A stretch of DNA of 60,537 bases, the filler included. It is 4 parts of 4 records of this genome, joined end to end, with 100 filler letters (N's around TTAATTAATTAA, not from the genome) between each part and the next. Parts side by side here need not be neighbours in the genome. Positions count along the whole stretch, not along the records: positions 28,692 to 47,093 come from SRR31156797_6207; 3 more parts are not named here. One strand, 5' to 3'. The position numbers were made by a program, and so were the translations under genes. Shown in pieces: positions 28,592 through 58,274 of this stretch. The notes beneath the pieces are model-generated. The model searched no databases and had not been told where the DNA came from. It was given only the letters and a program-made list of their open reading frames with translations. Every line of letters starts with the position of its first letter. The stretch's first letter is position 1.

Positions 28592-28691
28592 NNNNNNNNN
28601 NNNNNNNNNNNNNNNNNNNNNNNNNNNNNNNNNNNTTAATTAATTAANNNNNNNNNNNNNNNNNNNNNNNNNNNNNNNNNNNNNNNNNNNN
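28592..28691. other. Artificial contig linker
   Basis: N-run, TTAATTAATTAA (stop codons in all six frames), N-run. Confidence 0.99.
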
Positions 28692-28716
28692 GATTCATCA
28701 GTCCCATAAATTATAG

Positions 28717-28773
28717 AGCCAATAAAAAAGCATCACAGTTAGGCAAACTAACTGTGATGCTTTTTTATTGGCT
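28717..28773. terminator. Long bidirectional terminator downstream of secA2
   Basis: 26-bp perfect inverted repeat agccaataaaaaagcatcacagttag-gcaaa-ctaactgtgatgcttttttattggct. Confidence 0.88.
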
Positions 28774-28781
28774 ATAGTTGG

Positions 28782-31151
28782 CTATGGAAATTCAACATCG
28801 AATGAACCATCTTCTGTTTTTACCAACTCGGATAATAATAAATTTCTGACTGCTTCAAGATAAATGGCTTCACGCATTTCAGTAAAAGAACGATGTGCTT
28901 CTACTTGAAATTCATAGATGGGGCGATGTTGTCCCCAGTTTCGCCCATTGATGACTGTTTTCAATTGTTGCAGGTTGTCTGATTGTTCGATCCAAAGAGT
29001 ATCTAAGGCTTTTAAAAGAATGATTCGCTTGAAAAACAGCTGTTGGAAACTATCTGGCATAAATTGTTGAATGTGAATCAAACGCTCTGAAATCAGATCC
29101 AATAAAAATTTTTTGACCGTTCGCTTATTAAATTTATCTAGTTTCTCGATTTCAAAAACATCAAAATTATAGTCCAAATTATTAAAGATAAAATCAAGGA
29201 TCGCTTGTTGATTTAGGTTCTCTTTTTTAGTGGTGAATTGATTGATTGTTTCTTCTATGCATTGATTAATGATGTTTTCTAACTCGACAGGGGTACCTTT
29301 CATAATGCTGTTTCTCATGCTGTACATTTTGTCTCTTTGAATGGTAATAATTGAGTCAAATTCTAGCGTCGTTTGACGTCCGGCAATTTCTTGATTTTTG
29401 CGATTGCTTTGAGACTGATTGATTAGTTTATTGTATTTTTTCTTTTTTAAGGGCGTGAGATCACTGGATAATTCTTCTTGTTCAGTTAATAATTCTCGTT
29501 CGTCGGCGGCCCATTTGGGTGCACTTTCAACCACGATTTTGTCTTCCATAGATACATAGAAAATACTGTCACCCGGATCTCCTTGACGTCCAGAGCGGCC
29601 CCGAAGCTGATTGTCAATTCGGTCACTGGTCATCCGCTCAGTTCCTACTACTAATAGACCACCATTTTCCCGTGCGTCTTCTTCCAGTTTAATATCTGTA
29701 CCACGCCCAGCCATTGAAGTAGCCACAGTTACGGCACCTTTTTTACCAGCTTCTGAGATGATCCAGGATTCCTTGGTCGCTGTTGTAGCGTTTAAAAGAT
29801 TATGAGGGATTCGATGCTTTAAGAGAATCAGGGAGTATAACGTCGACATTGAGACTGATCCTGTCTCAATCAATACGGGGCGTTCTTGCGTCAAAGCATT
29901 TCTTACTGCTTCTAAAGAAGCCATGATTTTCGACTGATTGGTCACATAGACCAGATCCTGATGATCTTTTCGGCGAATGGGTTTATTTGTCGGAATTTCG
30001 ATTACGTCAATATCATACGTTTCTCGAAATTCGTCGGCGTCTGTTTTGGCAGTACCAGTCATTCCGGACAAAATTTTAAATTTTCGGAATAGGTTTTGGT
30101 AGGTAATGGAGCCCATGGAGCGGCTCTCTGTAGTAATCTCTACGCCTTCTTTCGCTTCGATTGCTTGATGAAGGCCAGCTTGTAGTTTTGTTCCAATCAG
30201 CTTACGTCCATTTGCTTCATCAAGCAAAAGAATCTCGTTGTCCTCCACAACATAGTCTTTGTTTAAGTGTAAGAGATAATTGGCCCGTAAGGCAATGACT
30301 AAATGACGGTAAAGACTTTTCCATTTTTCTGAAAGAATAGTTTCAATACCTAAGTAGTCTTCGGCTTTTTTTATGCCTGCTTCTGTAAACCAAGCGTGAC
30401 GTTTGTTTTCACTTCTCATAAAGTCTTTACCTTCAATCAAGCTTTTCACAAACCAATCAGATAGCGTAAAAAAATTTGACTGAACTTTGGGTGCTCCTGA
30501 AATGATCAATGGCGTTTGCGCCATATCAAGTAATATTGCATCGATTTCATCTATCAGTACATAATTGAAGTGGGTGACATATTGTTCGTCTGGAGAAACA
30601 GCCAAGTTGTCAAATAAATAGTCAAAGCCCAGTGCGCTATGCGTCGTATAGACGATGTCTGCTGCATAGACCACCTCTTTATCGATTTCTTCTCCTTCAT
30701 CTTCATGTTCAGGAACACCTGCAGCCACGGATAGTCCTAGAAAACGATAGACTTTTCCCGTTTCTTCAATATCTCGCAAGGCTAAATACGTATTAGAAGT
30801 AATCAAGAAATTGCCTTTGCCTCCCAGACCATGTAAATACATCGGCATGGTTGCGGTCAATGTTTTTCCTTCTCCGGTTTTCATTTCAGCAACATTGCCG
30901 TAAAAAAGAGCAATTGCGCCAAGAATTTGAACAAAATAAGGCTCCATTCCCAAGACACGACGGTCTGCTTCGACAACGACAGCATAGGCTTGCGGGAGTA
31001 AACTCTCCAGTTTTTTGCCCTGTTCGAGTTGTTGTCGAAAATGAATGGTTTGCATTTGCAATTCTTGATCTGATAATTGCCGATAGTTTTCTGCAAGACT
31101 TTGAACTTTTCTCGCCAACCGAATATACTTGCGAAACTTTTTATCTTTCAT
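28782..31151 (-). CDS. secA2: Accessory Sec translocase ATPase SecA2
   Basis: AEMKTGEGKT, IDEIDAIL, LHQAIEAKE, GMTGTA, MAGRGTDI, QLRGRSGRQGDPG. Short, with no C-terminal zinc tail. AGGAGG RBS before the ATG at 31151. Confidence 0.93.
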   Translation of the reverse strand: MKDKKFRKYIRLARKVQSLAENYRQLSDQELQMQTIHFRQQLEQGKKLESLLPQAYAVVVEADRRVLGMEPYFVQILGAIALFYGNVAEMKTGEGKTLTATMPMYLHGLGGKGNFLITSNTYLALRDIEETGKVYRFLGLSVAAGVPEHEDEGEEIDKEVVYAADIVYTTHSALGFDYLFDNLAVSPDEQYVTHFNYVLIDEIDAILLDMAQTPLIISGAPKVQSNFFTLSDWFVKSLIEGKDFMRSENKRHAWFTEAGIKKAEDYLGIETILSEKWKSLYRHLVIALRANYLLHLNKDYVVEDNEILLLDEANGRKLIGTKLQAGLHQAIEAKEGVEITTESRSMGSITYQNLFRKFKILSGMTGTAKTDADEFRETYDIDVIEIPTNKPIRRKDHQDLVYVTNQSKIMASLEAVRNALTQERPVLIETGSVSMSTLYSLILLKHRIPHNLLNATTATKESWIISEAGKKGAVTVATSMAGRGTDIKLEEDARENGGLLVVGTERMTSDRIDNQLRGRSGRQGDPGDSIFYVSMEDKIVVESAPKWAADERELLTEQEELSSDLTPLKKKKYNKLINQSQSNRKNQEIAGRQTTLEFDSIITIQRDKMYSMRNSIMKGTPVELENIINQCIEETINQFTTKKENLNQQAILDFIFNNLDYNFDVFEIEKLDKFNKRTVKKFLLDLISERLIHIQQFMPDSFQQLFFKRIILLKALDTLWIEQSDNLQQLKTVINGRNWGQHRPIYEFQVEAHRSFTEMREAIYLEAVRNLLLSELVKTEDGSFDVEFP

Positions 31152-31197
31152 TTTTTTGTTCCTCCTTTCAAAAACTGATATTGCTTGTGGCTTAAGC

Positions 31198-31653
31198 TTA
31201 ATCAGCAATGCTTTCTAATTTAGCACGAATCATGACGTCGTCTAGGTCAAAAAGATATTCCCTCATCAAATCATTGGCTTCTAAAAAAAAGACGATCTTT
31301 CCCTTCTGAGTAACTAGTTTCATCTTTCTTGATGCAATAAGTGGTTCTTCGTTTTGATCCAGCAGCGCTTCACCAGAACTTGTTACGAAGTGAAGTGAAA
31401 ACGTATAGGTTTTGGTGCTATCCATATTATAGTAGGGAAATTCACCGTGATAGATGGACTCTTGATCAACTGCTTCCAAAGAGTCATCAGTCCGCAAAAC
31501 GACAGCTTTTAGGTTTAACTTAGGCGTCGGTTCATTGTCAGGGACCCTAGATTCTGTAGTCGGTGTTTCGTTGACTGTTAAATTTTCTTTCAAAAAAAAG
31601 ATACCTCCTAAGAGCAAAACGAGAGGTATGATGACTTCAATTAGTTTTTTCAT
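31198..31653 (-). CDS. Membrane-anchored protein with one degenerate VaFE-repeat-like Ig domain
   Basis: N-terminal TM helix. Y.NM...KTYT...L....GEALLD...EPL.AS...KG.IVF resembles VaFE / T-Q ester repeat domains. Start could also be 31737. Confidence 0.55.
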   Translation of the reverse strand: MKKLIEVIIPLVLLLGGIFFLKENLTVNETPTTESRVPDNEPTPKLNLKAVVLRTDDSLEAVDQESIYHGEFPYYNMDSTKTYTFSLHFVTSSGEALLDQNEEPLIASRKMKLVTQKGKIVFFLEANDLMREYLFDLDDVMIRAKLESIAD

Positions 31654-31916
31654 AGTAAAGACCTTCTTTTGGGGGCTATTTCTCAGGAAATTCTCCCTTT
31701 TTTTCTTTTCCAATCCTTGTATTTCTCTGATGACCATTTAAAGTGAGTAGTTTTTACTTATTTGAATTTAAAACGATGATACCACAATGACCAACCTCAC
31801 CTTTTCCTTTTTTTTTTTTATTTCAACAAAAAACAAGTACAAAAGGCAATTTTAAACCTGTTACTATTTTGTTAAACCTTGCAGATTAAAAAAAAGTAAG
31901 AAAATTGGAGATGAAA

Positions 31917-33134
31917 ATGAAGAATCAAAAAGAACTCATTCGAAGAATAATCGCGAGCTTTTTCCTTTTGTTCATTGTTGAGATAGGTAAGCATATCCAG
32001 GTTCCTTTTTTTATTTCAGAAAAGATACCAGAGGAATCAACTAGTTTGATTCTGAAATTTTTAGCGACATCAACCGGTGGGAATTTTACTGTTCCAACGC
32101 TTTTTTCTTTAGGGATGGGCCCGTATATGACTGCCCTGATCATCTGGACAACGATAAGCATGATTGATACAGAAAGTATCGGAAATCTTTCCACCAAACG
32201 AATTGGGTATATTCAACGCAGTTTGACTCTTTTATTTGCTATCCTTCAAAGTTGCGCACTGGTTTTAAAATTTCGTTCCTCAATGATTGATCAAAAAGCA
32301 ATTGGAGGCTCTATTGTCCTGTTGTTTTTAGGAGCAGTTCTTCTTTTGACGGCTGGGGGATTGTTCGTTGCATGGCTAGCTGATATCAACATTGATAAAG
32401 GAATTGGAGGTCAAAGTCTGTTTATTGTTCCAGGTTTACTGATGAATATCCCAGCTATGTTAATTTCGGGACAAACAGAATCCGTTCATTTAAGTCAAAA
32501 CTTTATTATCGGGTTAGTTATGGTGACCTTAGTTTTTATTTATCTCACACTCTTCCTGTACAATGCAGAATACCGTATCAATATTGAACGGACAGGTATC
32601 GACAGTCGCTTTAACAATTCATATATTCCTATTCGACTTTTACCTGCCGGGGCAATGCCTTTCATGTTTGCAGTAACCGTCTTTTCAATGCCACAGCTTT
32701 TACTATTGAACGAAAAGTGGGGAGACACAGGCTTTTCAAATTTTATTACGACTTACTTTTCCTTTAATAATGTGCGGGGTATTTTCACTTATGGTCTGAT
32801 TCTCTATGTTTTAGGTTACGGATTTAGTTTTATAAATGTTCGACCATACGATATAGCCAAAAATCTAAAAGAGACGGGAGATTACATTTTAAATGTTGCT
32901 CCTGGCAAACAGACAGAGCGATATATATTGAAGCGTTTATCAACCGTTGCATTACTTGGCAACAGTTATCTTGTGATCGTTTCAATGATTCCCTTGTTGA
33001 TTGGATTGCAAAATCAAATCATTTCCAACTTAGCTTTTTATTTCGGAAGTATTTTTATGTTGATCATCATTTTAGAAACTATCACAAATGAAATACGGTT
33101 CCTCTTTTCCAGACATACTTACCGGATTTTTTAG
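31917..33134 (+). CDS. secY2: Accessory Sec translocon SecY2
   Basis: About 10 TM segments, LFSLGMGPYMTA.I, KGIGGQS, YIPIRLLPAGAMPFMF, IAKNLKETGDYILNVAPG..TE.YI. Start between 31905 and 31917. Confidence 0.92.
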   Translation: MKNQKELIRRIIASFFLLFIVEIGKHIQVPFFISEKIPEESTSLILKFLATSTGGNFTVPTLFSLGMGPYMTALIIWTTISMIDTESIGNLSTKRIGYIQRSLTLLFAILQSCALVLKFRSSMIDQKAIGGSIVLLFLGAVLLLTAGGLFVAWLADINIDKGIGGQSLFIVPGLLMNIPAMLISGQTESVHLSQNFIIGLVMVTLVFIYLTLFLYNAEYRINIERTGIDSRFNNSYIPIRLLPAGAMPFMFAVTVFSMPQLLLLNEKWGDTGFSNFITTYFSFNNVRGIFTYGLILYVLGYGFSFINVRPYDIAKNLKETGDYILNVAPGKQTERYILKRLSTVALLGNSYLVIVSMIPLLIGLQNQIISNLAFYFGSIFMLIIILETITNEIRFLFSRHTYRIF

Positions 33135-33155
33135 AGGATGTTAGGAGGCAATTTT

Positions 33156-34757
33156 TTGAATTATTTTATCCCTGATTGGACGACCAGTAGTGGCAATTTA
33201 GAAAGTGATTATATGATGAATATCATTCAGCTTTTCAAGAACAATCGAGAACCGTATCACTTATTGTTATTGGAGCATATACCGTTTTTACGTTATCAGA
33301 TGCATGCATATGAATTAGAAGTAGCGCAAATGACTTCGCTTTATGATCGCTTGCAAGACATTCAAAAAACCAATGGATTTCCCTTAGATGTCGATGACTT
33401 GCCTCTTGCTCAGAATGTTGAGAAGGTCTATACACCTTTTGGAATCACGCTGATTAAGGAAAATCAACCATTTGGTGAAATTCGGTTCAATTCATTTGGT
33501 TTTGCAGAACAGATGTCTATAATGACGGAACCTTATCGACAAATCCTCTTTTTCGATGATCGGGGATTTATTTCTGCAAAATCGTTCCAGAATGACAAAG
33601 GGGAACAAGTAAAGAAGATTTATTATAACGAATCGGGAATGGAAAAATGTGTGGAATACTTTGGAGAAAATCCACAGATTGAGCTGATAAATCCTCAAAG
33701 AATTGGGCTAAAGAAAAGTCAGTATCAAAGCATGGATGAACTTCTTTTAGAGATGATGAATCAATTTCAACTGAATCTTGAGCCAGAAGATCAAACAATT
33801 TGTTTGACAAATGAGCGGAGTCTACGATTGGTCAAAACGAACGAGGAACGAAAAAGAGTGATCCAGATCGTTTCTGATGCCCACAGACTTTCAACTTGTG
33901 CATCAGATGAAAAAGCAGCATTATGGGCTGGCGAAAATAAAATCATTACTGATTCGACTAGTAATCAAACAGCGCTTTTCTCTTTAATGAAACAGTCCGG
34001 TGTCAATGACCTATCTCGGATACAGCGCATACCTATTTACACAACTTCTTTTCAGCTGGGCAATAGCAACTCCATTCCCCAGCTGGTTCTTTATTGGAAC
34101 GCCGGTGAGCTTAACGAAGACGTTCGGAGAATCCATCATCTATTACTGCAAAAAGTTATTCAGAATGATCGTTATGACTTAATTATCGAAACGACGACAT
34201 TCCAAAGCGAAGTCGTTTTACGAGAAGCACAAAAAGAACTGGTTGATACTCACTTCGGTGTCGATAGTGAAACTGAGGAGTATCAAAAGGTATTAAAGTA
34301 TTTCGAAGCAAAAAAGGCGAAAAAGTTATTTAAAACGGATGAAGAGGCGATTGAAGAGATCCGAGAAAGCAAAAATTGGCGAAATCTAGTAGAGGCAGTT
34401 GATGTCAATTTTAGGATTCACTTTCGTTTGGATTCTCATCTCACCACGATTCGTCAGGATTTCAATGAGACACGATTGTATATTGATTTGTCTGCTGAAG
34501 TTGATGTCCAGAAACAAGCACTAGCTGTTAGTGCAGGGATTCCTCAGCTTGTTAGGAAGAAAACCGATTATGTGGATGACCAAAAGAATGGGCAAATCAT
34601 TGGTCAAATTAGAGAATTAGATGCAGCAATCGCTTTTTACCTGGACGATTTAAATAATTGGAACCAAGCATTGGTGGAAAATATTAGTTATATTGAGCGT
34701 TTTAGTGAGGAAAATATTATTAAACAATGGAGGGAGTTGCTAGAGGGTGTCGTCTAA
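33156..34757 (+). CDS. asp1: Accessory Sec protein Asp1
   Basis: YFIPDW start, PFLRY, FDDRGFIS, RLYIDLS..D....A.AVSAGIPQ, YL..LNNWNQALV. TTG start with an AGGAGG RBS. Confidence 0.9.
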   Translation: MNYFIPDWTTSSGNLESDYMMNIIQLFKNNREPYHLLLLEHIPFLRYQMHAYELEVAQMTSLYDRLQDIQKTNGFPLDVDDLPLAQNVEKVYTPFGITLIKENQPFGEIRFNSFGFAEQMSIMTEPYRQILFFDDRGFISAKSFQNDKGEQVKKIYYNESGMEKCVEYFGENPQIELINPQRIGLKKSQYQSMDELLLEMMNQFQLNLEPEDQTICLTNERSLRLVKTNEERKRVIQIVSDAHRLSTCASDEKAALWAGENKIITDSTSNQTALFSLMKQSGVNDLSRIQRIPIYTTSFQLGNSNSIPQLVLYWNAGELNEDVRRIHHLLLQKVIQNDRYDLIIETTTFQSEVVLREAQKELVDTHFGVDSETEEYQKVLKYFEAKKAKKLFKTDEEAIEEIRESKNWRNLVEAVDVNFRIHFRLDSHLTTIRQDFNETRLYIDLSAEVDVQKQALAVSAGIPQLVRKKTDYVDDQKNGQIIGQIRELDAAIAFYLDDLNNWNQALVENISYIERFSEENIIKQWRELLEGVV

Positions 34758-36330
34758 ACAGATTCAGGTATTTCATGTTGCAGCTGTTTCTTCTGAGGGG
34801 CAAAAGCAGCTTTCTCCTTTGTTTGCCTATCAGTGGCTTCCGTTGGCCTATGATTTCAGAAAAGATGAGCAGGAGCTACAGCTGTTTAAGAAAGACAAAT
34901 ATAATACCAAATACCATCGGGCAATTTTTCTTCTAGAGGAAAATGCCGCGATTCTTGAAAATTTGGAATTTTTAAAACAATTGCCAGCCTACCAAATATT
35001 TTACGAAGAAAATGGGCAGCTATCTCCAGAAGTTCAAGCGCTATTCACATTAAAAGCAGCGAATCCTTTTGATAAAAAGCAGCTAGAAAATGTTTTTCGT
35101 ACGATCAATGAGCAATTCTCAGCAAAGCAACAAGGATATAAGCTATCTATGGATCACATGAAATTTAATAAAACTGTCCCGTTGCAGATCGTTAAAGAAG
35201 GACATGCAGCCTGTCAGGTAAAGGCACAACTGACATCAGACGATCAGCAAATAACTACTTGGAAAATGACTAACCTGATACCTAAAGACGAACGCACCTG
35301 TTTTTATCCGGAGATCGCAGATGTTCAAGGAGAAGTGACATTAAAAATCAAACTCTTTTTCATTAAAGAAAACACGAATCAAGTCATCCAAGTGATTGAG
35401 GTCCTTCACGATCAAATCATAAATGGGGAGCCGGTTTACTTCAAATTAGATCAAAATTCATACATCAATGTTTCATTGTATGCCAAAGGAAATCGAGGGC
35501 AATTTACGATCGGGCAGATGCACCTGCGAAGAGCAATGGCAGATGAAAGTGTCATGATTCCAGGAGGCGGACGGATTCGGGATGAAGAGAATCTGGGGGG
35601 CGAAGTGATCTATTACTTTAATCCGGGAGATTTAAAACCTCCATTAGCGGTTTATTTTTCTGGCTATCGTTCAGCGGAAGGATTTGAAGGCCGTGGGATG
35701 ATGGGAAGTATGGGCTGTCCGTTTCTGCTGATTGGTGACCCTCGTTTAGAAGGTGGGAATTTCTATCTAGGCAGCCAGAAATTCGAACAAGAAATCGTAG
35801 CGATCATCTTAGGGAAACTAGCACTGCTAGGATTTGATAAGTCAGACCTCATTTTATCCGGATTATCGATGGGCACGTTTGGGGCGCTGTATTTTGCTAG
35901 CGATTTAAGCCCAAACAGTGTCATTGTGGGAAAACCGTTGACGAATCTTGGTTCCATTGCTCTAAATGAACGCATCAATCGACCAACTGGATTTCCAACC
36001 TCATTGGATATGCTGCTTTACAATATTGGGGTTGTTTCAAAAGAAGCGAGCAGTCAATTGAATGAACGGTTCTGGAGCAAATTCAAAAGTGGCGATTATC
36101 GGGAGACAACCTTTGCGATCGCCTATATGAAACAAGACGATTACGACATGGAGGCATTTCCAATGTTGTTTGAATTTTTAAAAAATAATTTCCCCATGAC
36201 TCGTGTTCTGTATAAAGGCATGATCGGCCGACATAACGATAATAGTCCTGCCATCAATAATTGGTTTTTGAAACAATACAAAAATATTCTCGTGCATACA
36301 TTTCACCGCGATATCAAGAAAATATTATAG
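34747..36330 (+). CDS. asp2: Accessory Sec protein Asp2 (O-acetyltransferase fold)
   Basis: YYFNPGDLKPPLAVYFSGYRSAEGFEG, DPRLEGG.FY, GLSMG, YM.QDDYD, GRHND (Ser-Asp-His triad). Confidence 0.93.
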   Translation: MSSKQIQVFHVAAVSSEGQKQLSPLFAYQWLPLAYDFRKDEQELQLFKKDKYNTKYHRAIFLLEENAAILENLEFLKQLPAYQIFYEENGQLSPEVQALFTLKAANPFDKKQLENVFRTINEQFSAKQQGYKLSMDHMKFNKTVPLQIVKEGHAACQVKAQLTSDDQQITTWKMTNLIPKDERTCFYPEIADVQGEVTLKIKLFFIKENTNQVIQVIEVLHDQIINGEPVYFKLDQNSYINVSLYAKGNRGQFTIGQMHLRRAMADESVMIPGGGRIRDEENLGGEVIYYFNPGDLKPPLAVYFSGYRSAEGFEGRGMMGSMGCPFLLIGDPRLEGGNFYLGSQKFEQEIVAIILGKLALLGFDKSDLILSGLSMGTFGALYFASDLSPNSVIVGKPLTNLGSIALNERINRPTGFPTSLDMLLYNIGVVSKEASSQLNERFWSKFKSGDYRETTFAIAYMKQDDYDMEAFPMLFEFLKNNFPMTRVLYKGMIGRHNDNSPAINNWFLKQYKNILVHTFHRDIKKIL

Positions 36331-36345
36331 GGAATGAGGGAGTCG

Positions 36346-37251
36346 ATGAATAGTTTATATCGTATCAAGTGGGGGATCGACTTTAATGACAATTATAATT
36401 ATGGCGCAAAAATAGCTTATATGCCCTCTGGGGATGTCTTGTACTCTTCTCCTTTGATGCCTCCAGGCGTCAGTATTAAATCTTGGTATTCGAAAACAGA
36501 ATTTCATATTAGTCGGAAATCACCAATGCTACCAATGTTACTGCCTGGATACAAGTACGAGTTAACACTTCATGCTGCATTCGATCGTAAGGAAGCAGTA
36601 CAGCTATTGGTGGAATTTTTTGATAAGGATGGGTTTCTCCTTGAAAAACTAGTCTTCGAAACAAACCAAGAATGTTTTCTCTTTCCGCAAGGTGCCACTG
36701 ATTATCAGATTCATATGGTAAACAAAAAGCATCAAGAGATTCATTTTAAGGAATTGGTTTTATCCACTAAGGAGAATCAAGCATTTGAAGTGGTTCCTAT
36801 AAATGCAAACACTGGAGCAAACCAAGGCTCAAACATAGCAACCAGCGTTGTTGCGGTTACACCGTTGGTTGAGAAACATGCTGCCTTATCGGTCGTATTT
36901 GAAAAACAGAACAGCTATGTCAAAGAATATTCACTTTCAGATTTTGAAGCAGGATTGTTTGTTGAACCGGATACTAAGGCTGCATCATCGTATTTGGAAG
37001 TATTGCTTGAACAAATCTATCAGCGAAGCGACAGTCCCGAAAAAATCAACCTTAAAATGGGACAAAATTTTTCTTTGCTGGAGTCTTGTTACCACGAAGA
37101 TTTTTCTGTATTAGCTTTATTATTTGCAAAGCCAAATGAAGAAGCCGAAGCACCCGAGCTTATGGATCGTCTGCAAAAAAAGATCGCACTTAATCAAAGG
37201 GCACTAAAAGTTTTAGAGAATGTAAAAGAAAACAGGAAAAAATCAACCTAA
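36346..37251 (+). CDS. asp3: Accessory Sec protein Asp3 with C-terminal extension
   Basis: I.WG....YNYG, SPLMPPGVSIKSWYS.T.F....P.LP.L..G..Y, F.FP.GA.DY.I. Confidence 0.88.
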   Translation: MNSLYRIKWGIDFNDNYNYGAKIAYMPSGDVLYSSPLMPPGVSIKSWYSKTEFHISRKSPMLPMLLPGYKYELTLHAAFDRKEAVQLLVEFFDKDGFLLEKLVFETNQECFLFPQGATDYQIHMVNKKHQEIHFKELVLSTKENQAFEVVPINANTGANQGSNIATSVVAVTPLVEKHAALSVVFEKQNSYVKEYSLSDFEAGLFVEPDTKAASSYLEVLLEQIYQRSDSPEKINLKMGQNFSLLESCYHEDFSVLALLFAKPNEEAEAPELMDRLQKKIALNQRALKVLENVKENRKKST

Positions 37252-37267
37252 TAAAGAGGGGGACATC

Positions 37268-38707
37268 ATGAATTTTTTTGTAAATAAAGCAATGGGGATT
37301 GGTAATTCTGGTGTGGAACATGCACAGTTCTATCGTGCTGCTTGTTTTGATAGAAAAAATATTCCCTATAAGTATATTTTTATGGAGCTAGTGAAGAATC
37401 TCCATGAAGCCATGGCGGCTTGGAAAATACCAGATGATAAAGTCATCTCCATGTGGGAATATTTTGCACTAGAAGGTGATTATTTAAGGCAAGGGGCTAA
37501 AGCAGTTTTTACTGCACAACAAGATCTCTTAGTAGATGCTACGAACACACATAGAATCAAAGAAACCATCACGTCATCAGGATTAAAAATCGTTGAGCAT
37601 ATGGAAAAATCTCCTAGTCCAAAAAAGGAAGGCTTACTGCTAGTTTCGGATTATCGGGTAGAGATTTTTGACTATCGAACGAATCAAAGAAAAATCATGT
37701 ACAGTTATCGAAATGATTCGCATCGAGGAAGAGTAATGACGAATATTCATTTGTTTGCTTTCAAAGGCAAACATCGTTTCTTTAGAAATGAAGTCTTATT
37801 GCAGCGATTTTTCTTTAAACAACTGATAGAAGAATTCCCAGAAACCAAAAGTATCATCATTGATCGGGGGGAGGAAAGCGAGGCTGCTTTATATGATCAT
37901 TGTCCTCCGGAAATCAAATTGATTGAGATCGTTCATGCCGATCATTTATCTGATCGTGACGTAGCTAGCGCACCTCTTTGGAACAATTACTATGAATTTG
38001 CTTTGACGCATTTGGAACAAGTCGCTCATATCGTTGTTGCGACAGAATTGCAAAGGCAAGATTTGTTGATCGATTTCCCAAACGAGTCCAAAAAAATTGT
38101 GACGATCCCGGTGGGAGGGATTCGCGATGTGACAGAAGATTCATTTGAATTAGGCAAACAACAGGCAGAAAAGTTTGTGACAGTCTCTCGTTTGGCATCC
38201 GAAAAGCACATTGATCTTGTGATGCGGGCAATTGCTGCAGCAAAAAAAGAACATCCAACGATCTCTTTAGACATCTATGGTCAAGGGGGAGAAGAAGGTA
38301 AGTTAAAAGCAGTGATCAAGGAGTTGAATGCAGAAGAGTACATTCTGTTAAAAGGGCATTCTCATGCAATCAATGAAGTATATCCTGATTATGATGCATT
38401 TATCTCTGGTTCTTTTTCAGAAGGTTTCGGATTGACTTATATTGAAGCTTTAAATGCAGGATTGCCAATTGTAACCTTCAAGGCTCGTTTTGGGGCCATG
38501 GAGTTGATCAAAGAAGGAGTCAATGGTTATTTGAAAGATTTTTCTAGAACTGATGAAGCTTATACTATTCAGCAACTAACAGATGGCATTCGTCAGTTGA
38601 CTGCTTCTGATCTGAACCAACTTAAAGCCAATACCCGCAAGTCTGTACGAATGTTTCAAGACGCGATAATTGCAGAGAAATGGAGTGAGTTGATCGATGC
38701 ATTATGA
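37268..38707 (+). CDS. gtfA: GtfA-like GT4 glycosyltransferase
   Basis: SGVEHAQFYRA, VHADH, TIPVG, SRLASEKHID, EGFGLTYIEA (EX7E motif). Confidence 0.85.
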   Translation: MNFFVNKAMGIGNSGVEHAQFYRAACFDRKNIPYKYIFMELVKNLHEAMAAWKIPDDKVISMWEYFALEGDYLRQGAKAVFTAQQDLLVDATNTHRIKETITSSGLKIVEHMEKSPSPKKEGLLLVSDYRVEIFDYRTNQRKIMYSYRNDSHRGRVMTNIHLFAFKGKHRFFRNEVLLQRFFFKQLIEEFPETKSIIIDRGEESEAALYDHCPPEIKLIEIVHADHLSDRDVASAPLWNNYYEFALTHLEQVAHIVVATELQRQDLLIDFPNESKKIVTIPVGGIRDVTEDSFELGKQQAEKFVTVSRLASEKHIDLVMRAIAAAKKEHPTISLDIYGQGGEEGKLKAVIKELNAEEYILLKGHSHAINEVYPDYDAFISGSFSEGFGLTYIEALNAGLPIVTFKARFGAMELIKEGVNGYLKDFSRTDEAYTIQQLTDGIRQLTASDLNQLKANTRKSVRMFQDAIIAEKWSELIDAL

Positions 38708-39545
38708 ATTAGTCACCGTGATCCGACCAAATGACCGAATTTGGATGGCACAAAAATCACGAATCAAAGAAGGAAGTCAAGTGTTGTCCATCTCACCGAG
38801 TCCAAATTTTCAAGCGATGCTCCAAAAAGAAGCATTGCAGGGAATAAATATTTTAGATCAAGTGACACAGCGCAGTCACGATACAGAAGCCTTTCTGTTT
38901 TTTAACCAAGTACCAACAGCTTACTCTACAGAAGTTTATATGAACGAGGACCGGACCATTTCCTTGATCACTGATGGAGATGAAGTAGGTAAAGTGAGCT
39001 TGTATCCTATGACTAGAAGACATGTCAAAGAAGTTCGCTACTTTTATCCTGATGGCACGACAGATTTCATTGAAGAATATGCCGCAGATGGGAAATTATT
39101 CTCAACTATTTATTACTGCAATGACCAGGTTCAAGAGATTGCTTTTTTCAATGATCAGCAACAAAGTATTCTGAATTACTATTTTTATCAAGGCACCATC
39201 AATTTAGTCACGATTCGTGATACAGAAACATTCAAGGTAACTCAAAAATTTAACACAACACTTGATTTCATTCGTGATCAGTTAGCTTTTCGGTTAACAG
39301 AAAATGATACAGTTGGCATTTCATATATGGGGTTAGAATTATTTTCTCTAGCAAAATCCAACTCGACAAATACACTTTATCTGGAAGAATCGCCGCTTGA
39401 TGGCAAAGGGAATATCAAAGGGAACTTAATGAGTATTTTAGATGACCGCGTTCCTTATATTCATAAGGTAGAAGTCGATCAAAAGAATTATCAGTTGTTG
39501 GCAAACAAAAATGTATGCATGGACAAAGTTGTGTTGAAAGGATGA
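38697..39545 (+). CDS. Short GtfB-like partner (N-terminal DUF1975-like part only)
   Basis: Occupies the gtfB position, overlapping gtfA. LFFNQVP and R.VKEV.Y...DG...FIEEY...G..FS resemble GtfB. Only 282 aa. Confidence 0.6.
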   Translation: MHYELVTVIRPNDRIWMAQKSRIKEGSQVLSISPSPNFQAMLQKEALQGINILDQVTQRSHDTEAFLFFNQVPTAYSTEVYMNEDRTISLITDGDEVGKVSLYPMTRRHVKEVRYFYPDGTTDFIEEYAADGKLFSTIYYCNDQVQEIAFFNDQQQSILNYYFYQGTINLVTIRDTETFKVTQKFNTTLDFIRDQLAFRLTENDTVGISYMGLELFSLAKSNSTNTLYLEESPLDGKGNIKGNLMSILDDRVPYIHKVEVDQKNYQLLANKNVCMDKVVLKG

Positions 39546-39552
39546 AGACAAA

Positions 39553-40110
39553 ATGAAAAAAATGAAAACCACTGAATTGTATGAGCAAATTATGTTGTTA
39601 ATAAAAGAGAACAGCGGGTCCATGCTCACTTTTGAGAAGGAACAAGAGGAAGCAAAGAAACTTTTTGCTCATCAAAACGCATTGATTGATCAGCTGATTC
39701 AAATCAATCAAGAAATGAAAGCAATGATGAACAAGTCAGAAAACGATATCGATCTAAATGTGATCCAAACATTAAAAAAACAATTCAATGCATCTTTTGA
39801 GCAGCAACAGGAGGAGCAAAATAAATTACAAATGATTTATGAGAAGCTCTTTTCTGCTTATGAGGTTGAAAAGCAAATGCTTCGAACCTATTTTTTGAAT
39901 GAAACCGAGCAGATCATTGATCGGTTAACCTCAACCGTCGAAAGACAAGATAACGATGTGAATCAATTGAGTCAAGAGCTGATTGATGAGCTTCGGGCAG
40001 TGGAAATAGCAGAGGTAGTGAATGAGATAGCTACAAACGAAAATGAACCAGTAGAAAATGTTTCAGAACTGAGTGAATCACTACAACTGGCAGACGATCA
40101 GAACCAGTAG
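39553..40110 (+). CDS. Hypothetical acidic coiled-coil protein
   Basis: 185 aa, E/Q/K-rich heptads, no TM, tightly packed in the operon. Confidence 0.7.
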   Translation: MKKMKTTELYEQIMLLIKENSGSMLTFEKEQEEAKKLFAHQNALIDQLIQINQEMKAMMNKSENDIDLNVIQTLKKQFNASFEQQQEEQNKLQMIYEKLFSAYEVEKQMLRTYFLNETEQIIDRLTSTVERQDNDVNQLSQELIDELRAVEIAEVVNEIATNENEPVENVSELSESLQLADDQNQ

Positions 40111-40168
40111 ATAAACCAGTTTTCTTCATAGTTGTTTGCCGAAAATAAACTGGGAAGAGGTGATTTCG

Positions 40169-40351
40169 TTGGCGAATAATCAGCTAGAAAAAACGATTCA
40201 AGCGGGATTTCAAGAAGAACGAGAAAACGTAAGAAATCACTCAGAAGAAAAGAAAAAGGGCAAAGCGATCACCATCGTGCTTTCCTTAGTTATGTCGATC
40301 GTGATCCTTGGATCGTTGGTTTATTCTTTATTGGAAGCATTACAGAAGTAA
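40169..40351 (+). CDS. Small single-TM protein, Asp4-like
   Basis: 60 aa with a charged N-terminus, KKKGK, then a C-terminal TM (AITIVLSLVMSIVILGSLVYSLL). GAGGTG RBS before TTG. Sits after gtfAB. Confidence 0.6.
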   Translation: MANNQLEKTIQAGFQEERENVRNHSEEKKKGKAITIVLSLVMSIVILGSLVYSLLEALQK

Positions 40352-40387
40352 GAATAAAAATAGGTCCTGCATTTTAGAAAAAAGGAT

Positions 40388-41383
40388 TTGAAAAATATGG
40401 AAACTAGATTACTAAGCGTTTGTCGATTAATTAGCACGATCAACCCAGACTTAAAGATACCTGATACATCAGTCGTTGCTGTCAATATTGATCGCGAGAA
40501 ATTAGAAGAGATACGCAAATGTAAAGGACTATCTGTGAAATCTTTTGAAAGAAAGATTGGGTTATCTCGCTCACGGTACTATAGATGGGTACAATATGAG
40601 ATCGACTTGCCCTTCGAATTGGTTGTTGGCATCAAGAAAATGTTGAGCATATCTGATACCGAATTGTTAGACATGTTTGCAATGTCAACAGATGAACAAC
40701 TTCATCTATTAAGTGTATTGATTTATAGCTCTTTATCAACGAAAGAGGACATGTTTGTTACCTTTATGAAAGTCAGAAAAGAGTTAGAAAAATTTCGCTC
40801 CTCTACTGAGGATAATACGATGTTTAAACTTATGTTGGCCTATTCTGACCTCGTATTTGGTTGTATGAACCAGAAAGTTCCGGATGCAAGTTTAGAAATG
40901 CTTGAAACATTTTTTCTGGGAACTGATTTTTATACATTATTTGACAGCCTTTTATATTTAGCTACATTACGCATCAAACAGCGCTATGGCTTGCACGCTT
41001 CATCTTTAGAAAAACAAATTTTTTTGTTAGAGAGCTGCCTTTTAAAGAAAATAAATTCGACTGATTTTACGGAACTGCGGCCAGTCTTGGTAGGCGCCGT
41101 ATTAGATTTATCAGAATGTTTGGTAGACATCCAACGCTGTGATGATGCGGTTCAATTACTTCAACATGCAAGTCGTTTAATGGAGGAACATTGGCATATT
41201 GATGTCTATAATCAGACAGTTCTAAAACTAGTCAAATATTTGCTGCTTACAAGGAATACTGCACAAGAAGATCCTGCTGTACAACTGTTTTCTAAAAATT
41301 TGAAGGGTGCAGAATGGTGCTTACCGAAAGATGAAGTGATGTTTGTGCGGGCAATGATGGAAAAGGAGATGGGACAAGCGTGA
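40388..41383 (+). CDS. Rgg/MutR-like transcriptional regulator (XRE HTH + helical repeat domain)
   Basis: LEEIRKCKGLSVK......GLSRSRYYRW...IDLPFE HTH followed by an all-helical C-terminal domain. Start uncertain. Confidence 0.7.
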   Translation: MKNMETRLLSVCRLISTINPDLKIPDTSVVAVNIDREKLEEIRKCKGLSVKSFERKIGLSRSRYYRWVQYEIDLPFELVVGIKKMLSISDTELLDMFAMSTDEQLHLLSVLIYSSLSTKEDMFVTFMKVRKELEKFRSSTEDNTMFKLMLAYSDLVFGCMNQKVPDASLEMLETFFLGTDFYTLFDSLLYLATLRIKQRYGLHASSLEKQIFLLESCLLKKINSTDFTELRPVLVGAVLDLSECLVDIQRCDDAVQLLQHASRLMEEHWHIDVYNQTVLKLVKYLLLTRNTAQEDPAVQLFSKNLKGAEWCLPKDEVMFVRAMMEKEMGQA

Positions 41384-42396
41384 ATCGGTGGGTGACGACG
41401 ATCATTGAATCGAATGCAGCAGATTCAGTCAAAAAAGCGAAAGTAGATGTTTTTCACATTGCCAATGGGATGGATTATCAACCTTTATATATTTATCGTT
41501 ATATCGATGAGAATGAAGATGATTATGCACTTATGTCAAGGATTGATGGCATTACAGCTGGTGTCGCTTATGAAGATATCGTGGTCTATCAATATCCAAG
41601 TTATAACGGAGCCCATTTTGACCGAATGTTCTTACAAAGAATGAAACAAAGAGGGATTTACACGAGTTTATTCATCCATGACGCTGAGATGTTGCGTGGG
41701 AAAGTCGATTTTGATGAATCTGCTCTTTTCAATGAAGCAACAGTATTGATCGTTCATAGCCAAGCTATGCAGACAGCCTTAGTCGAAAGAGGCGTGACAC
41801 GGAGAATGATCCAAAAACCATTTTTCGACTATCAGCATCAAGAAGTTAGTGTCAGTCATGAAAGACCAGAAAAACGAGTTGTCTTTGCAGGAAATTTGGC
41901 AAAAACCCGTTTTCTACAGCAGTGGCCCAATCGCACGGAAATTCTTGTATACGGCGATAAAAACGACAGTCAATTTGGTCCGAATGTTCATTATTGTGGT
42001 GTTTTTGAGCAAGAGAAATTGGTTCGTAGGATGGAGAAAAATGGTTTCGGACTTGCGTGGGATGATAAGTTGCCTGATGGTGGTGACTACCAACAATATA
42101 CGAAGTATAATGCACCGCACAAAATCTCGTTGTATCTCTCGTTAGGAATCCCTGTCATTGTATGGAAAGAAGCAGCTATAGCAGAGATGGTACAGAAACT
42201 GGAACTTGGCATTACTATCAACGCAATTGAAGACATTGATCATCAATTAAGTGAGTTAACAGATGAAGAGCTGCTGCGGATAAAAAATAATGTTCTTTCA
42301 TTTAGTTGTTTACTGCAATCAGGAATATTTACTAGAACGGCACTGATGGATTCAGAAGTGAAAATACTCCTAGGCAAAGGAGCAAGTCAAGCATGA
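41380..42396 (+). CDS. Gtf3/Nss-like glycosyltransferase
   Basis: RIDGITAGV...DIVVYQYPS, FIHD.E.LR, LIVHS..M, FDY, FAGNL.K, GFGLAWD, YNAPHKISLYL..GIPVIVW. Confidence 0.88.
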   Translation: MNRWVTTIIESNAADSVKKAKVDVFHIANGMDYQPLYIYRYIDENEDDYALMSRIDGITAGVAYEDIVVYQYPSYNGAHFDRMFLQRMKQRGIYTSLFIHDAEMLRGKVDFDESALFNEATVLIVHSQAMQTALVERGVTRRMIQKPFFDYQHQEVSVSHERPEKRVVFAGNLAKTRFLQQWPNRTEILVYGDKNDSQFGPNVHYCGVFEQEKLVRRMEKNGFGLAWDDKLPDGGDYQQYTKYNAPHKISLYLSLGIPVIVWKEAAIAEMVQKLELGITINAIEDIDHQLSELTDEELLRIKNNVLSFSCLLQSGIFTRTALMDSEVKILLGKGASQA

Positions 42397-42776
42397 AACA
42401 ATCGATGAGTACAAAGAAGTTATCCGCAATCATTCAAATCAGCGAACTAGATCAGATGTTGACTGATTTGAAACAAGCGATCGAACAACGGGATAGTAAA
42501 ATTGCGCGATTACAACAAATGATTTCAGAAAAACGACAGTCAGCCGTTGGTTATCGCGATTTTATTGTCTTAAAGAATAGCCAAGAAGAATTGAGAGAGT
42601 TATGCAAAAAAATTGACTTGCAGCTGGTCAAAACCAATGAGCTTTTACGGCATATACGTAATACAAAAGTAATTTTCAGCGACTTGTTGCTTTTAGAAGC
42701 AGAAGTCAACGAACAAATGAGTAAAATTCAGGAACTGTCCAATGCATTCTTTATCCAAGAAGAGGCAGGAAAATAG
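42393..42776 (+). CDS. Hypothetical coiled-coil protein
   Basis: 127 aa with continuous heptads, ATGA-coupled to the glycosyltransferase. Confidence 0.7.
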   Translation: MKQSMSTKKLSAIIQISELDQMLTDLKQAIEQRDSKIARLQQMISEKRQSAVGYRDFIVLKNSQEELRELCKKIDLQLVKTNELLRHIRNTKVIFSDLLLLEAEVNEQMSKIQELSNAFFIQEEAGK

Positions 42777-42847
42777 AGGATGAAATAGCAATAGTGTTAT
42801 TAGGGAAGCTGTAAGTCATGATAAATAGGGAAGTTAGGGGGATTAGT

Positions 42848-44185
42848 GTGAACAAAATCATTGCATTAGACATTGATGAATTTCGAGTAGGCGTTGTTGG
42901 CTACGGTTATCAAGATGTCAGAAGTTCTGTTTATTCAGAAGTCAAAAAAAATAATCTACAATATCTTTTAGGAAAGAATAATGAACCGATCTACCTAAAA
43001 AACAAAGTAGGGAAACGAATACTTCTCGGGGGCAGCGAGAAAGAAATCACTTGGGGACTCGACAAGTTGTATAGTCGACGATCAGAAGCCTATCAAACAT
43101 TTGGCAATCCGTTGGCAACCCTGGGAGACCAAAAATTTAAGACATATATCAAAACGATACTCTCTTATTTAGTAGCGAAAAGACCCTCACTTTTTACTGA
43201 AATTGCAGAGGATTACTTTAGCTGTTCATTATGCCTTGGCGTAGCAACAGAAAGTTTTGACCGGCTTGCTGACATTGAGAGACAACTGGCAGATGAATTC
43301 GAGACAGTTGTTGATGGCACTCACTATCAGATCCGCATCGAGCGAGTAAAGCTGATCCCGAAATCTCTGGGCGCAATTTTTGAAAGCAAACGAAATGATA
43401 TTCATTTGATGTTAGGCGTGGAAGAAATTCTTGCTGGGTTGACCTATGTGATTGAAATCAATGATCATTCTCTCACTTGTGATAGCTACGAAAATGGGGA
43501 ACTGATCAAAAGTTCAAAAGTCACAGACGGCTTGTTTGAATTGGCAGGCAACGTGGTACAAGCTTATCAAGAAAATGAGGGGGATCATCCCGCACCTATC
43601 TTTGCGCTAGATCATGGCGTCGTTTACGATATGCTTGTCACAGCTAAGAAAAACAATCCATTTGTCGTGACGATCAATGGAGGTCAGACAATAGATTTAA
43701 CTGAGATCGTTAAAAAAGAGACGACTGCTTTGACAGATCAATTGATTGATTATGTAAACAGTGATCAAGATATTCAATATGCTGATACAATTCTAATCAG
43801 AGATATTCCTTCAGAAACGATCAACGAAAACACAGTAAATCAGACACTCACCAAGATGGGGTTATCTTGTAAAGTATTTAACAATAAAAGTGCTCTTGGC
43901 GTGTATCTCTTCGGAGAGTTGTTTTGGAAAAGTCAACTGAATGCTTCGATAGATCATTTTGAGGATAACAGTCCATTTCCAATGAAGCCAGACGGTTTAG
44001 AGTCGAAAGTGAATGCAGAACCTTTACCAGTCGAGAAGTCCCTCGAATCTTCAACTAACCAAATTGATTCTGAGCTACCAGAAGCTACCAAGCAAAAGAG
44101 TCATCATAGAAGCTTATCTGTAGAAGCAATCTTTGCGGAACAGTCGGAATTGCTTGATTTCTTGATCAGCAACGACAAAGAGTAG
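42848..44185 (+). CDS. ParM/StbA-family actin-like protein with degenerate nucleotide-binding motifs and an acidic tail
   Basis: Collinear with Firmicute ParM: IIALDI, FKTYI, VDG..YQI.I..VKLIP.SLG.I, YVIEI.....D.Y.NG, IDLTEIV.KE, D.ILI, G...FGEL. GTG start with an AGGGGG RBS. Confidence 0.75.
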   Translation: MNKIIALDIDEFRVGVVGYGYQDVRSSVYSEVKKNNLQYLLGKNNEPIYLKNKVGKRILLGGSEKEITWGLDKLYSRRSEAYQTFGNPLATLGDQKFKTYIKTILSYLVAKRPSLFTEIAEDYFSCSLCLGVATESFDRLADIERQLADEFETVVDGTHYQIRIERVKLIPKSLGAIFESKRNDIHLMLGVEEILAGLTYVIEINDHSLTCDSYENGELIKSSKVTDGLFELAGNVVQAYQENEGDHPAPIFALDHGVVYDMLVTAKKNNPFVVTINGGQTIDLTEIVKKETTALTDQLIDYVNSDQDIQYADTILIRDIPSETINENTVNQTLTKMGLSCKVFNNKSALGVYLFGELFWKSQLNASIDHFEDNSPFPMKPDGLESKVNAEPLPVEKSLESSTNQIDSELPEATKQKSHHRSLSVEAIFAEQSELLDFLISNDKE

Positions 44186-44322
44186 TCAATTTGGAGAAGG
44201 AAATGTGAATTTCGAGAGGATTGCAATAACCATTCCCTTTTTTTCCATGGTTAGTCTTTTGTACTAAATCAGAACATCGGACTTTGCAATAAAGTCTTGT
44301 CGTCAATAAGGATTGATATGTT

Positions 44323-44400
44323 GTACAAAAAACACACTTGGGACTGAAGAATCAATTATGATTCATCAGTCCCAAAAATGATAAAGACGTTTCTTTGTAC
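44323..44400. repeat. Nested palindromic element, one arm repeated at the contig start
   Basis: ttgggactgaagaatc-aattat-gattcatcagtcccaa (44338-44375) inside gtacaaaaaac..gtttctttgtac. gattcatcagtccca also occurs at 28692-28706. Confidence 0.8.
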
Positions 44401-44847
44401 AGTAAAAGTTAAGAGAACTTATAAATAAAGGGAAAATAACAGTAAGATTTTAAAGAATCTGCTAAAATTTTTGTAACCGAAAATGAAAATAATATGATTG
44501 TTTATGAAAATTTTCATTTTCAGTTTACAATTATTTTTTTTGACAAGTGAAATTTTAGCGAGTAGCCAATCACTCCTGGTGTTTAAGAGTTTTCAAGGAA
44601 AGAACTTTTATCACAAACAAAAGATTCTTTCTGGATTTTGAGTATTTATCATGAAAAAAATATTCTGTTGTTTTTCAAACAAAAGAAATCCTATTTCATT
44701 TTCACAAATTCGCTTGAGAGAAGGACCCATTTTTTGGCTTTTGCTCTCATTTTTCTCACAGAATCAAAATTTGGGTCATTTTGCATTTTCTCTTTTTTCC
44801 GATTAGGATAATCACCTGAGTAAAATTTGTTGTTTGGAGGAAGAGAA

Positions 44848-47093: not shown

Positions 47094-47193
47094 NNNNNNN
47101 NNNNNNNNNNNNNNNNNNNNNNNNNNNNNNNNNNNNNTTAATTAATTAANNNNNNNNNNNNNNNNNNNNNNNNNNNNNNNNNNNNNNNNNNNN
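47094..47193. other. Artificial contig linker
   Basis: N-run, TTAATTAATTAA, N-run. Confidence 0.99.
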
Positions 47194-50100: not shown

Positions 50101-50328
50101 TTTTTCATGAGCAATTTCAGTGGTAATACCATGCACCGCCACCACATCCTCTGGTATGGTATAGCCATCCGGTGTAATCACATGATTTTTGGCGTATAGA
50201 AAGTTCCCCTCAATATCGTGACATTGCCATGCCAGCTGAACCATTCTTGGCCAATTGTCTGTATCGGTAATGGGTGCTTTCCAATTCTTTGGAAGTCCGG
50301 TGGTTTCGGTATCAAAAACTAAAAACAT
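47194..50328 (-). CDS. dnaE: DNA polymerase III alpha subunit with fused N-terminal DEDDh exonuclease (3' truncated)
   Basis: FDTETTG, GHNVTFD and AHNA.ADV exonuclease motifs; HLHVHTQYS PHP domain; GPGRGSAAG; PDVDIDF; KMDFLGL; ALYRPGP. Confidence 0.96.
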
Positions 50329-55342: not shown

Positions 55343-55343
55343 C

Positions 55344-58207: not shown

Positions 58208-58274
58208 ATAGGAGAACGAGCCGTTTTTGCCGGGGGTAATCACAAGAGTGAATCGTAGATGTGAAAATCGCTGT

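Follow-up and report, generated by a model that had tools for sequence, protein, structure and literature searches.

An Enterococcus SecA2/SecY2 locus with a conserved set of extra genes, an actin-fold protein among them, and the probable position of its adhesin gene

Genes of the accessory Sec contig

The stretch of DNA considered here, referred to below as the window, consists of 60,537 bases from four contigs, with N44-spacer-N44 joins at 28592-28691, 47094-47193 and 55243-55342. Its second contig (28692-47093; 18.4 kb, GC ~0.38), broken off at the first of these joins on the left and at the second on the right, is, to go by its frames and family matches, an intact accessory Sec (aSec) locus, that is, a SecA2/SecY2 system for glycoprotein export. 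Serine-rich-repeat (SRR) adhesins and the aSec exporters that serve them drive colonization and biofilm formation in streptococci, staphylococci and lactobacilli, and the present subject is what the locus holds beyond the usual components and where its own adhesin gene is to be sought. An actin-like protein encoded toward the end of the gene run led to the nearest genomes, E. innesii GAL7 (93% amino acid identity) and E. gallinarum NBRC 100675 (82%). Collinearity with E. innesii extends from 28721 as far as the right end of the contig (18,387 nt at 94.3% nucleotide identity), and that with E. gallinarum from 28720 to 44215 (15,518 nt at 87.0%). By this comparison the contig derives from a member of the casseliflavus/gallinarum group of Enterococcus, close to E. 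innesii; an earlier reading of the window, made from its letters alone and called here the sequence-only reading, had guessed Enterococcus and was right.

On the minus strand the open reading frame (ORF) of secA2, which encodes the accessory Sec motor ATPase, occupies 28782-31208 (TIGR03714 and Pfam SecA domains; longest ORF 808 aa). Its TIGR03714 score of 985.1 bits is above the cut-off of 930, and comparison with E. gallinarum points to the ATG at 31151 as the likely start, for a protein of 789 aa. Divergent from it, and all on the plus strand, is a run that begins with the gene for the accessory channel, secY2 (31905-33134; PF00344 E 3.8e-48), for which the best models are SecY2 equivalogs, both falling below their cut-offs (TIGR02920, 242.3 bits versus 249.6; NF009082, 253.3 versus 353). 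Then come asp1 (33138-34757; TIGR03713, 262.5 bits versus a cut-off of 136.1), asp2 (34747-36330; TIGR03712, 440.9 bits versus 210.75) and a double-length asp3 of 305 codons (36334-37251; PF15432 E 5.4e-29; TIGR03711, 94.5 bits versus 67.25). The Asp3 domain spans residues 21-144 only, and the C-terminal 160 aa gave no family match in the profile search; the asp3 of E. raffinosus is long too, at 951 nt. The next gene encodes a GtfA-like GT4 glycosyltransferase (37268-38707; Pfam Glycos_transf_1), with TIGR02918 as its best NCBIfam match (E 8.7e-76; 255.6 bits, below the cut-off of 574.6), and by homology it is a putative priming O-GlcNAc transferase.

The run continues with genes that are less familiar. 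Overlapping the 3′ end of gtfA is a short gtfB-like gene (38697-39545; 282 aa), whose product matches the N-terminal half only of GtfB: positions 55-256 of the 438 in TIGR02919 (E 1.2e-7), at 30.8 bits versus an equivalog cut-off of 338.3. Against the GtfA-GtfB (Gtf1-Gtf2) O-GlcNAc transferase complex (PDB 5E9T/5E9U) it aligns to residues 58-238 of the 446 in the GtfB chain, 5E9U_B (E 0.0016), and, unlike that chain, it is without the C-terminal half. Short GtfB had strong matches in 10 of 134 Enterococcaceae species genomes, with every frame in the range 283-328 aa. Beyond it lie a 185-aa acidic, helical, coiled-coil-like protein (39553-40110; heptad score 0.70) that has no family match in profile searches and is weakly conserved, at 30-35% identity, in five of seven more distant loci, and a 71-aa tail-anchored membrane protein, TM71 (40136-40351; KD19 maximum 2.64 at residue 44), conserved in all nine of the enterococcal-subtype loci compared. 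A putative helix-turn-helix (HTH) regulator of 331 aa, tentatively Rgg/MutR-like (40388-41383), is followed by a 338-aa Gtf3/GtfC-type glycosyltransferase (41380-42396), a 127-aa coiled-coil-like protein (42393-42776; heptad score 0.725) and the actin-like gene. The heptad scores come from a crude script of our own, on which two globular controls reach 0.45 and 0.425.

For the regulator the HTH_3 match is sub-threshold (E 0.0015; 19 bits versus a cut-off of 23), there is no Rgg_C match in Pfam and the best PDB sequence match has an E of 0.025. Atlas language-model features gave a score of 0.93, with 20 of 30 matches in Rgg_C+HTH_3 clusters, and the protein is conserved in nine loci at 33-99% identity. 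The glycosyltransferase has PRK09814 family matches and is close to solved Gtf3/GtfC enzymes (4W6Q, E 7.7e-42 over residues 6-326; 3QKW, E 3.5e-36; 9HU9, E 2e-28), and by homology it would be a second sugar transferase. The 127-aa gene lies directly upstream of the actin-like gene in all the arrangements compared; its positional orthologues in eight other loci, of 116-145 aa, align without large gaps and share six invariant columns, and the profile search gave no DNA-binding family match for it. It overlaps gtf3 by 4 nt, with the actin-like gene 41 nt further on. Throughout the 12 genes from secY2 to the actin-like gene, gaps do not exceed 41 nt and four junctions overlap. A scan for promoters and terminators returned 56 promoter-like sites, versus 47.9 expected from shuffles, and is thus of no help.

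Upstream of secA2, and on the same strand, is the gene for a 151-aa membrane protein (31198-31653, minus strand). Its longest ORF reaches 31737; the start is more likely M29 of that ORF, which is conserved in the alignment. The protein has an N-terminal transmembrane (TM) helix (KD19 maximum 2.37 at residue 4) and an extracytoplasmic domain that AF2 models as a seven-stranded beta-sandwich (domain pLDDT ~90), for which Foldseek found no PDB match at E 0.001 or better and the Atlas feature search no usable match. The gene adjoins secA2 in E. gallinarum, E. innesii, E. sulfureus and one Enterococcus metagenome-assembled genome (MAG). In E. gallinarum there are also four distant paralogues of the protein (20-24% identity) elsewhere in the genome, on contigs C56, C16, C59 and C18.

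Much of the sequence-only reading of these genes stands. The gene order and the core identities, with secA2 divergent from secY2-asp1-asp2-asp3-gtfA, are borne out by the family searches, as are the short GtfB-like gene, the Gtf3-like enzyme and, by their heptad scores relative to the controls, the two coiled coils. It had called TM71 ‘Asp4-like’, for which there is no support from hidden Markov models: there is no Pfam or NCBIfam match to Asp4 or Asp5 even at E values up to 10, and the likeness is one of size and of a single C-terminal TM segment, a SecE/Asp4-like topology. ‘Rgg-like’ is a tentative label for the probable HTH regulator, its support being the sub-threshold HTH_3 match and the language-model features. 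As for the ‘Ig-like membrane protein’ paired with secA2, the pairing, the membrane location and the beta-sandwich are as described, but ‘Ig-like’ is only loosely right since the TM helix and modelled beta-sandwich come without a significant PDB match.

By homology to streptococcal systems, an SRR adhesin would be O-glycosylated in the cytoplasm by GtfA acting with the half-length GtfB, after which the Gtf3-type enzyme would extend the glycan. Asp1-3 would handle the preprotein, SecA2 would drive it through SecY2 and a sortase would anchor the exported adhesin.

Gene orders in Enterococcus and in known systems

A synteny survey across Enterococcus, the check that the sequence-only reading had suggested, turned up a recurrent gene run and three arrangements of one subtype, the gene orders being taken from tblastn synteny, ORF reading and organism names. 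Asp2 scores above cut-off in 12 of the 134 Enterococcaceae species genomes, and the actin-like gene is present in 9 of the 134, all nine being within the Asp2-positive dozen. The run itself (gtfA, short gtfB, in some cases a coiled coil, TM71, HTH, gtf3, again in some cases a coiled coil, and the actin-like gene) is met with again, its proteins 35-66% identical, in E. pallens, Ca. E. ferrettii, E. avium, Ca. E. murrayae, E. raffinosus and E. sulfureus, where SecA2 is 68-69% identical.

The first arrangement, that of E. pallens, Ca. E. ferrettii, E. avium, Ca. E. murrayae and E. raffinosus, has the order secA2, secY2, asp1-3, gtfA, short gtfB, coiled coil, TM71, HTH, gtf3, coiled coil, actin-like gene and then one or two genes whose products have the KxYKxGKxW signal; in one more genome, G005, the order is the same except that the actin-like gene is missing. 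The second, which E. sulfureus shares with an Enterococcus MAG, starts at secY2 and runs to the actin-like gene, after which come the 151-aa gene and secA2, all on a single strand. The third is common to the window, E. gallinarum and E. innesii: here secA2 and the 151-aa gene form a pair divergent from secY2 and, in the two relatives, an SRR gene is convergent with secA2 on its far side. One inversion converts the second arrangement into the third. Two other Enterococcaceae genomes are Asp2-positive, and in the one examined, G068, secA2 comes ahead of gtfA, in an order like that of streptococci.

The extra genes, for short GtfB, TM71, the Rgg-like HTH protein, Gtf3, two coiled coils and the actin-fold protein, thus appear, from their conservation and synteny, to be a conserved Enterococcus-specific accessory module of an aSec subtype. 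In proposing a distinct aSec subtype with extra components the sequence-only reading had it right, as the extra genes are conserved with the locus and the actin-like gene is confined, in the genomes surveyed, to Asp2-positive ones. The analysis reveals that a group of Enterococcus species has in common an aSec architecture peculiar to it, in which six or seven extra genes, labelled hypothetical in current annotation, are conserved.

Comparison with the loci for GspB in Streptococcus gordonii and Fap1 in S. parasanguinis, whose gene order is well established, illustrates both what is shared and what is not. SecA2, a probable SecY2, Asp1-3, a GtfA-like enzyme, a GtfB relative and a Gtf3-type second transferase are likewise encoded in the window, and the substrate in its E. 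gallinarum and E. innesii relatives is an LPxTG SRR adhesin with the KxYKxGKxW signal. However, secA2 of the enterococcal subtype is never between asp3 and gtfA: it is found upstream, in divergent orientation or else at the 3′ end. The subtype also has a GtfB of half and an Asp3 of double the usual length, and Asp4/Asp5 family matches are lacking. The enterococcal extras comprise an in-operon Rgg-like regulator, two coiled coils, a TM plus beta-sandwich partner for secA2 and an actin-fold protein.

Nearer to hand is the megaplasmid of E. raffinosus (NZ_CP081847.1), the aSec region of which is mentioned in PMC10323788, where the text concerned names asp, sec and gtf genes only. It has the same subtype and gene run, with an actin-like protein 37% identical to that of the window, and ends in two proteins annotated by PGAP as having KxYKxGKxW signal peptides. 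Unlike the window, it has secA2 co-directional with and upstream of secY2, an integrase adjoining, and its substrate genes downstream of the actin-like gene. The short GtfB, Gtf3 homologue, coiled-coil and actin-like genes are all annotated ‘hypothetical protein’. In what we have from the literature, enterococcal aSec has until now been mentioned only in passing, for E. cecorum in the relevant text of PMC10117131 and for E. raffinosus in that of PMC10323788, and the consulted text of a review of SRR proteins (SRRP; PMC6973325) has 0 occurrences of ‘Enterococc’. In the full texts searched, we found no paper that connects an actin-like or ParM protein with aSec, nor any description of the present enterococcal subtype.

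The actin-fold protein

The last gene of the run (42818-44185, plus strand) encodes a 455-aa protein with the fold of ParM/Alp-like actins, as judged by Foldseek, profile-profile comparison and motif alignment. The top 50 PDB chains listed by Foldseek are all of ParM, Alp, MreB or FtsA type, the best being 3JS6, psk41 ParM (E 3.5e-12), for an AF2 model that is weak (pLDDT 60.8; Foldseek TM 0.24-0.31). In hhalign the match to Alp7A-like proteins of the ALP_N family has 99.4% probability (E 8e-22), and with Pfam ALP_N itself (PF17989) the score is 18.2 bits, below the cut-off of 26.3 (E 0.0029). ‘Actin homologue’, the term used in the sequence-only reading, is accordingly a fair one, with the structural part of its support resting on a weak model.

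While the fold is common to the window protein and the ParM/Alp7A actins, the nucleotide-binding motifs are not. On a profile alignment of 18% identity, the ALP-family invariants G9, G199/T202 and G309-G310, which belong to the phosphate-1, phosphate-2 and adenosine motifs, align to D20, D216-H217 and R328-D329, so that the glycine motifs are replaced by D, DH and RD. These substitutes are invariant in 15 of 15 sequences of the actin-like family, across which no conserved GG is present. The protein also differs from ParM/Alp7A in having a tail of ~75 residues (358-433) that is predicted to be disordered and is followed by a conserved acidic C-terminal helix, and in being encoded in a secretion/glycosylation operon instead of a partition cassette.

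The family is a small one. There are 15 clusters at 90% identity among 5.8 billion proteins, and all the named ones are Enterococcus; 1.84 billion representatives gave 22 matches, including three of full length and five distant ALP_N-family proteins. In 185,579 species genomes there are 11 loci, ten of them in Enterococcus and the other on a 2.6-kb MAG contig labelled Streptococcus. Across nine more distant loci the frame is kept at 450-527 aa, with 34-45% identity. In Enterococcus sp. MMGLQ5-1 (L034 9989-21138) the actin-like gene, of 527 aa, is directly upstream of an SRR gene of >3178 aa; neither gtf3 nor a coiled-coil gene precedes it there, and asp2 is ~16 kb downstream of its end.

Might the actin-like gene and the coiled-coil gene before it be simply the leftover of a ParM/ParR-like partition cassette, carried on a mobile island or megaplasmid and without any role in export? 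The protein's nearest relatives are plasmid-segregation actins, the E. raffinosus locus is on a megaplasmid of ~1 Mb, downstream of a site-specific integrase and in a region that PMC10323788 calls variable in the text available, and the loss of nucleotide motifs could mean functional decay. However, the replaced motif residues are invariant, which argues for purifying selection rather than decay, and the frame remains open across all those distant loci. The gene is inside the operon, with the close spacing described above, and in most loci sits between gtf3 and the SRR genes. It occurs in chromosomal contexts also, was not found outside aSec-positive genomes among the 134, and the coiled-coil protein has no DNA-binding family match. 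A partition relic is the chief rival reading, but we regard it as unlikely.

Whether the protein is a nucleotide-independent scaffold or adaptor for glycosylation and export, instead of a classical ATP-driven filament, is to our minds an evenly balanced proposition, put forward on the strength of genomic context and conservation. A more elaborate version is offered as a speculation that we would rate as more doubtful than not: a ParM-derived actin fold, with conserved charged residues filling its nucleotide pocket and equipped with a disordered linker and an acidic helix for docking, may have been recruited into a secretion/glycosylation machine, where with its coiled-coil neighbour it would be a nucleotide-independent scaffold that organizes or positions SRR glycosylation and SecA2/SecY2 export, the half-length GtfB being a minimal chaperone for GtfA. 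Were this so, a Sec-family pathway would for the first time have a cytoskeleton-type component. The glycine-less actin-fold protein and the half-size GtfB provide testable handles on two open aSec questions, namely the spatial coupling of cytosolic glycosylation to export and the extent of GtfB that is required.

The contig end and the substrate gene

No serine-rich ORF and no match to K.YK.GK.W is present in the entire 60.5-kb window, just as the sequence-only reading had said in finding neither an SRR gene nor a KxYKxGKxW-type signal. However, the contig ends a mere 90 nt beyond the secA2 stop codon. Between the two is a bidirectional terminator-like hairpin at 28723-28766 (unstranded; an A-run, a 12-bp stem and a T-run), identified from sequence and alignment, which is common to E. 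innesii and E. gallinarum and there separates secA2 from the convergent SRR gene. The terminal nucleotides, 28692-28721, belong to an intergenic palindromic repeat with multiple copies, of which they form the right arm; it is so classed from contig depth and from its copies. Over the first 30 nt the depth is 3-9 times that of the rest of the contig in three of four runs (it is flat in X6), and several contigs end there; this check used the Logan contigs of four of the 22 public runs listed, and shows the repeat at the contig end, not the sequence beyond. In three public runs the contigs that hold the aSec stretch measure 15.9 to 18.4 kb.

The repeat is a palindrome of ~54 nt, present in 1-5 copies each in seven of eight genomes of the genus, often at contig ends, and sequence comparison reveals a second copy on the contig itself, at 44340-44385 (unstranded), in the 641-nt gap after the operon. 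One copy elsewhere (L042 1500-1560) is beside the remnant of an IS3-like orfA. An insertion sequence (IS) element as the general cause of the break was considered and rejected, as that copy, read in its full context, is the ~54-nt intergenic palindrome beside only the orfA remnant. Because of the raised depth, the contigs ending there and the multiplicity of copies, the left break is taken to be an assembly break at a repeat.

What lies past this point in the nearest genomes is clear. In E. gallinarum a 2794-aa ORF lies 135 nt past secA2, to which it is convergent, and it has the features of an SRR adhesin: a KxYKxGKxW signal, a short SRR1, a non-repeat binding region, an SRR2 of ~1,500 residues and LPKTG. 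In E. innesii the same gene is past secA2, split into pieces of 1884 and 1561 aa that are ~1 kb apart. Each genome has exactly one TIGR03715 match, and it is this gene. More widely, a linked KxYKxGKxW ORF is present in eight of the nine enterococcal-subtype loci fetched, as it is in MMGLQ5-1 and, by PGAP annotation, on the E. raffinosus megaplasmid; E. sulfureus is the only locus of those compared in which the KxYKxGKxW substrates are unlinked, being on other contigs. The non-repeat region of the enterococcal SRR adhesin includes a pectate-lyase-like adhesive domain, PF20585, and has relatives, 35-60% identical, in lactobacilli as well as in Vagococcus, Leuconostoc, Convivina and Weissella.

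With these two genomes as guide, the SRR gene most likely lies convergent to secA2, immediately to the left of 28692. The sequence-only reading had a ‘different or unlinked substrate’ in mind, which is not supported here. It had also named what would count against its view, a canonical SRR gene just past the break together with extra genes not conserved with the locus; the former is what the two nearest genomes have directly past secA2, but the extra genes are conserved. Since the next gene past secA2 in both is a canonical SRR adhesin, the seeming lack of a substrate is most likely an assembly artefact that reflects the contig break, and the notion of a system without a substrate should be dropped.

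Putting these strands together, the contig is probably a complete aSec locus of a previously undescribed enterococcal subtype with a conserved extra module, its SRR gene most likely being just beyond the left break. There are several points on the other side of the ledger. Three of the 12 aSec-positive genomes are without the actin-like gene; GtfA and GtfB score far under their equivalog cut-offs, and SecY2 slightly under; and the weakness of the actin-like model and the low identity behind its motif mapping have been alluded to. Homology to both relatives stops at 28720/28721, with the multi-copy repeat beyond. Substrates can be unlinked, as E. sulfureus illustrates, and a locus of this type can decay: that of E. 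innesii GAL7 has secA2 and asp2 frameshifted and its SRR gene split. (The GAL7 locus has the look of decay, with secA2 and asp2 each in two or three frames, or else contains sequencing errors.) When the N-terminal region of the SRR protein was compared with 5.8 billion proteins, no cluster could be traced to the lineage of the contig. One cluster, P0044, at 96%, turned out to belong to E. gallinarum, being 99% identical to the SRR protein of that species. An alignment of the contig's first 16 nt to the region of the SRR stop codon was likewise set aside, as those bases are repeat.

Some of the same points would suit a strain that has no linked SRR gene, the gene having been deleted or displaced when the repeat or mobile DNA replaced the sequence to the left of 28721, with the aSec system exporting an unlinked substrate or decaying. 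The replacement of homology by a repeat, the orfA remnant beside that repeat in one genome, the retention of the subtype by E. sulfureus with its KxYKxGKxW proteins on other contigs and the state of the GAL7 locus are all in keeping with it. Yet the frames of the window's aSec genes are all intact, and a palindrome of ~54 nt would fit in the spacer of ~77 nt between the SRR stop codon and the shared terminator, where E. innesii has another hairpin. Moreover, in both nearest genomes the gene found there is their only KxYKxGKxW gene. Loss of the linked gene therefore seems to us quite improbable, and a complete locus, cut by the assembly, is preferred.

The other end of the contig offers a different candidate for the substrate. 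At 44827-47093 (plus strand) is a gene for a sortase-type adhesin, with SpaA, ice-binding-like and Cna_B matches in Pfam, that runs off the right end of the contig within its Cna_B repeats. Its position downstream of the actin-like gene is that at which loci of the E. pallens, E. avium and E. raffinosus type carry SRR genes, and it is a surface adhesin, truncated by the contig end. It has, though, a short, ordinary Sec signal peptide without the KxYKxGKxW motif, has no serine-rich repeats and is separated from the operon by the 641-nt gap. Homology to E. gallinarum ends at 44215, and there the adhesin is absent from that place while the entire aSec locus is kept. That it is the aSec substrate instead of an SRR protein is very improbable indeed, and it is not part of the aSec system. 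The E. innesii orthologue (L002 12008-15916) is 1302 aa and ends in LPKTN.

As to the rest of the window (1-28591, 47194-55242 and 55343-60537), the contigs flanking that of the aSec locus need not share its organism because of their gene content, and a mixed assembly or bin is the probable source. An Enterococcus origin is unlikely for both contigs 1 and 3. The first (1-28591; GC 0.42-0.48) encodes SelB and a HydABC-type set for an [FeFe] hydrogenase of the electron-bifurcating type, and the third (47194-55242) a DnaE-type polymerase with an N-terminal exonuclease and a 1008-aa PD40/peptidase protein.

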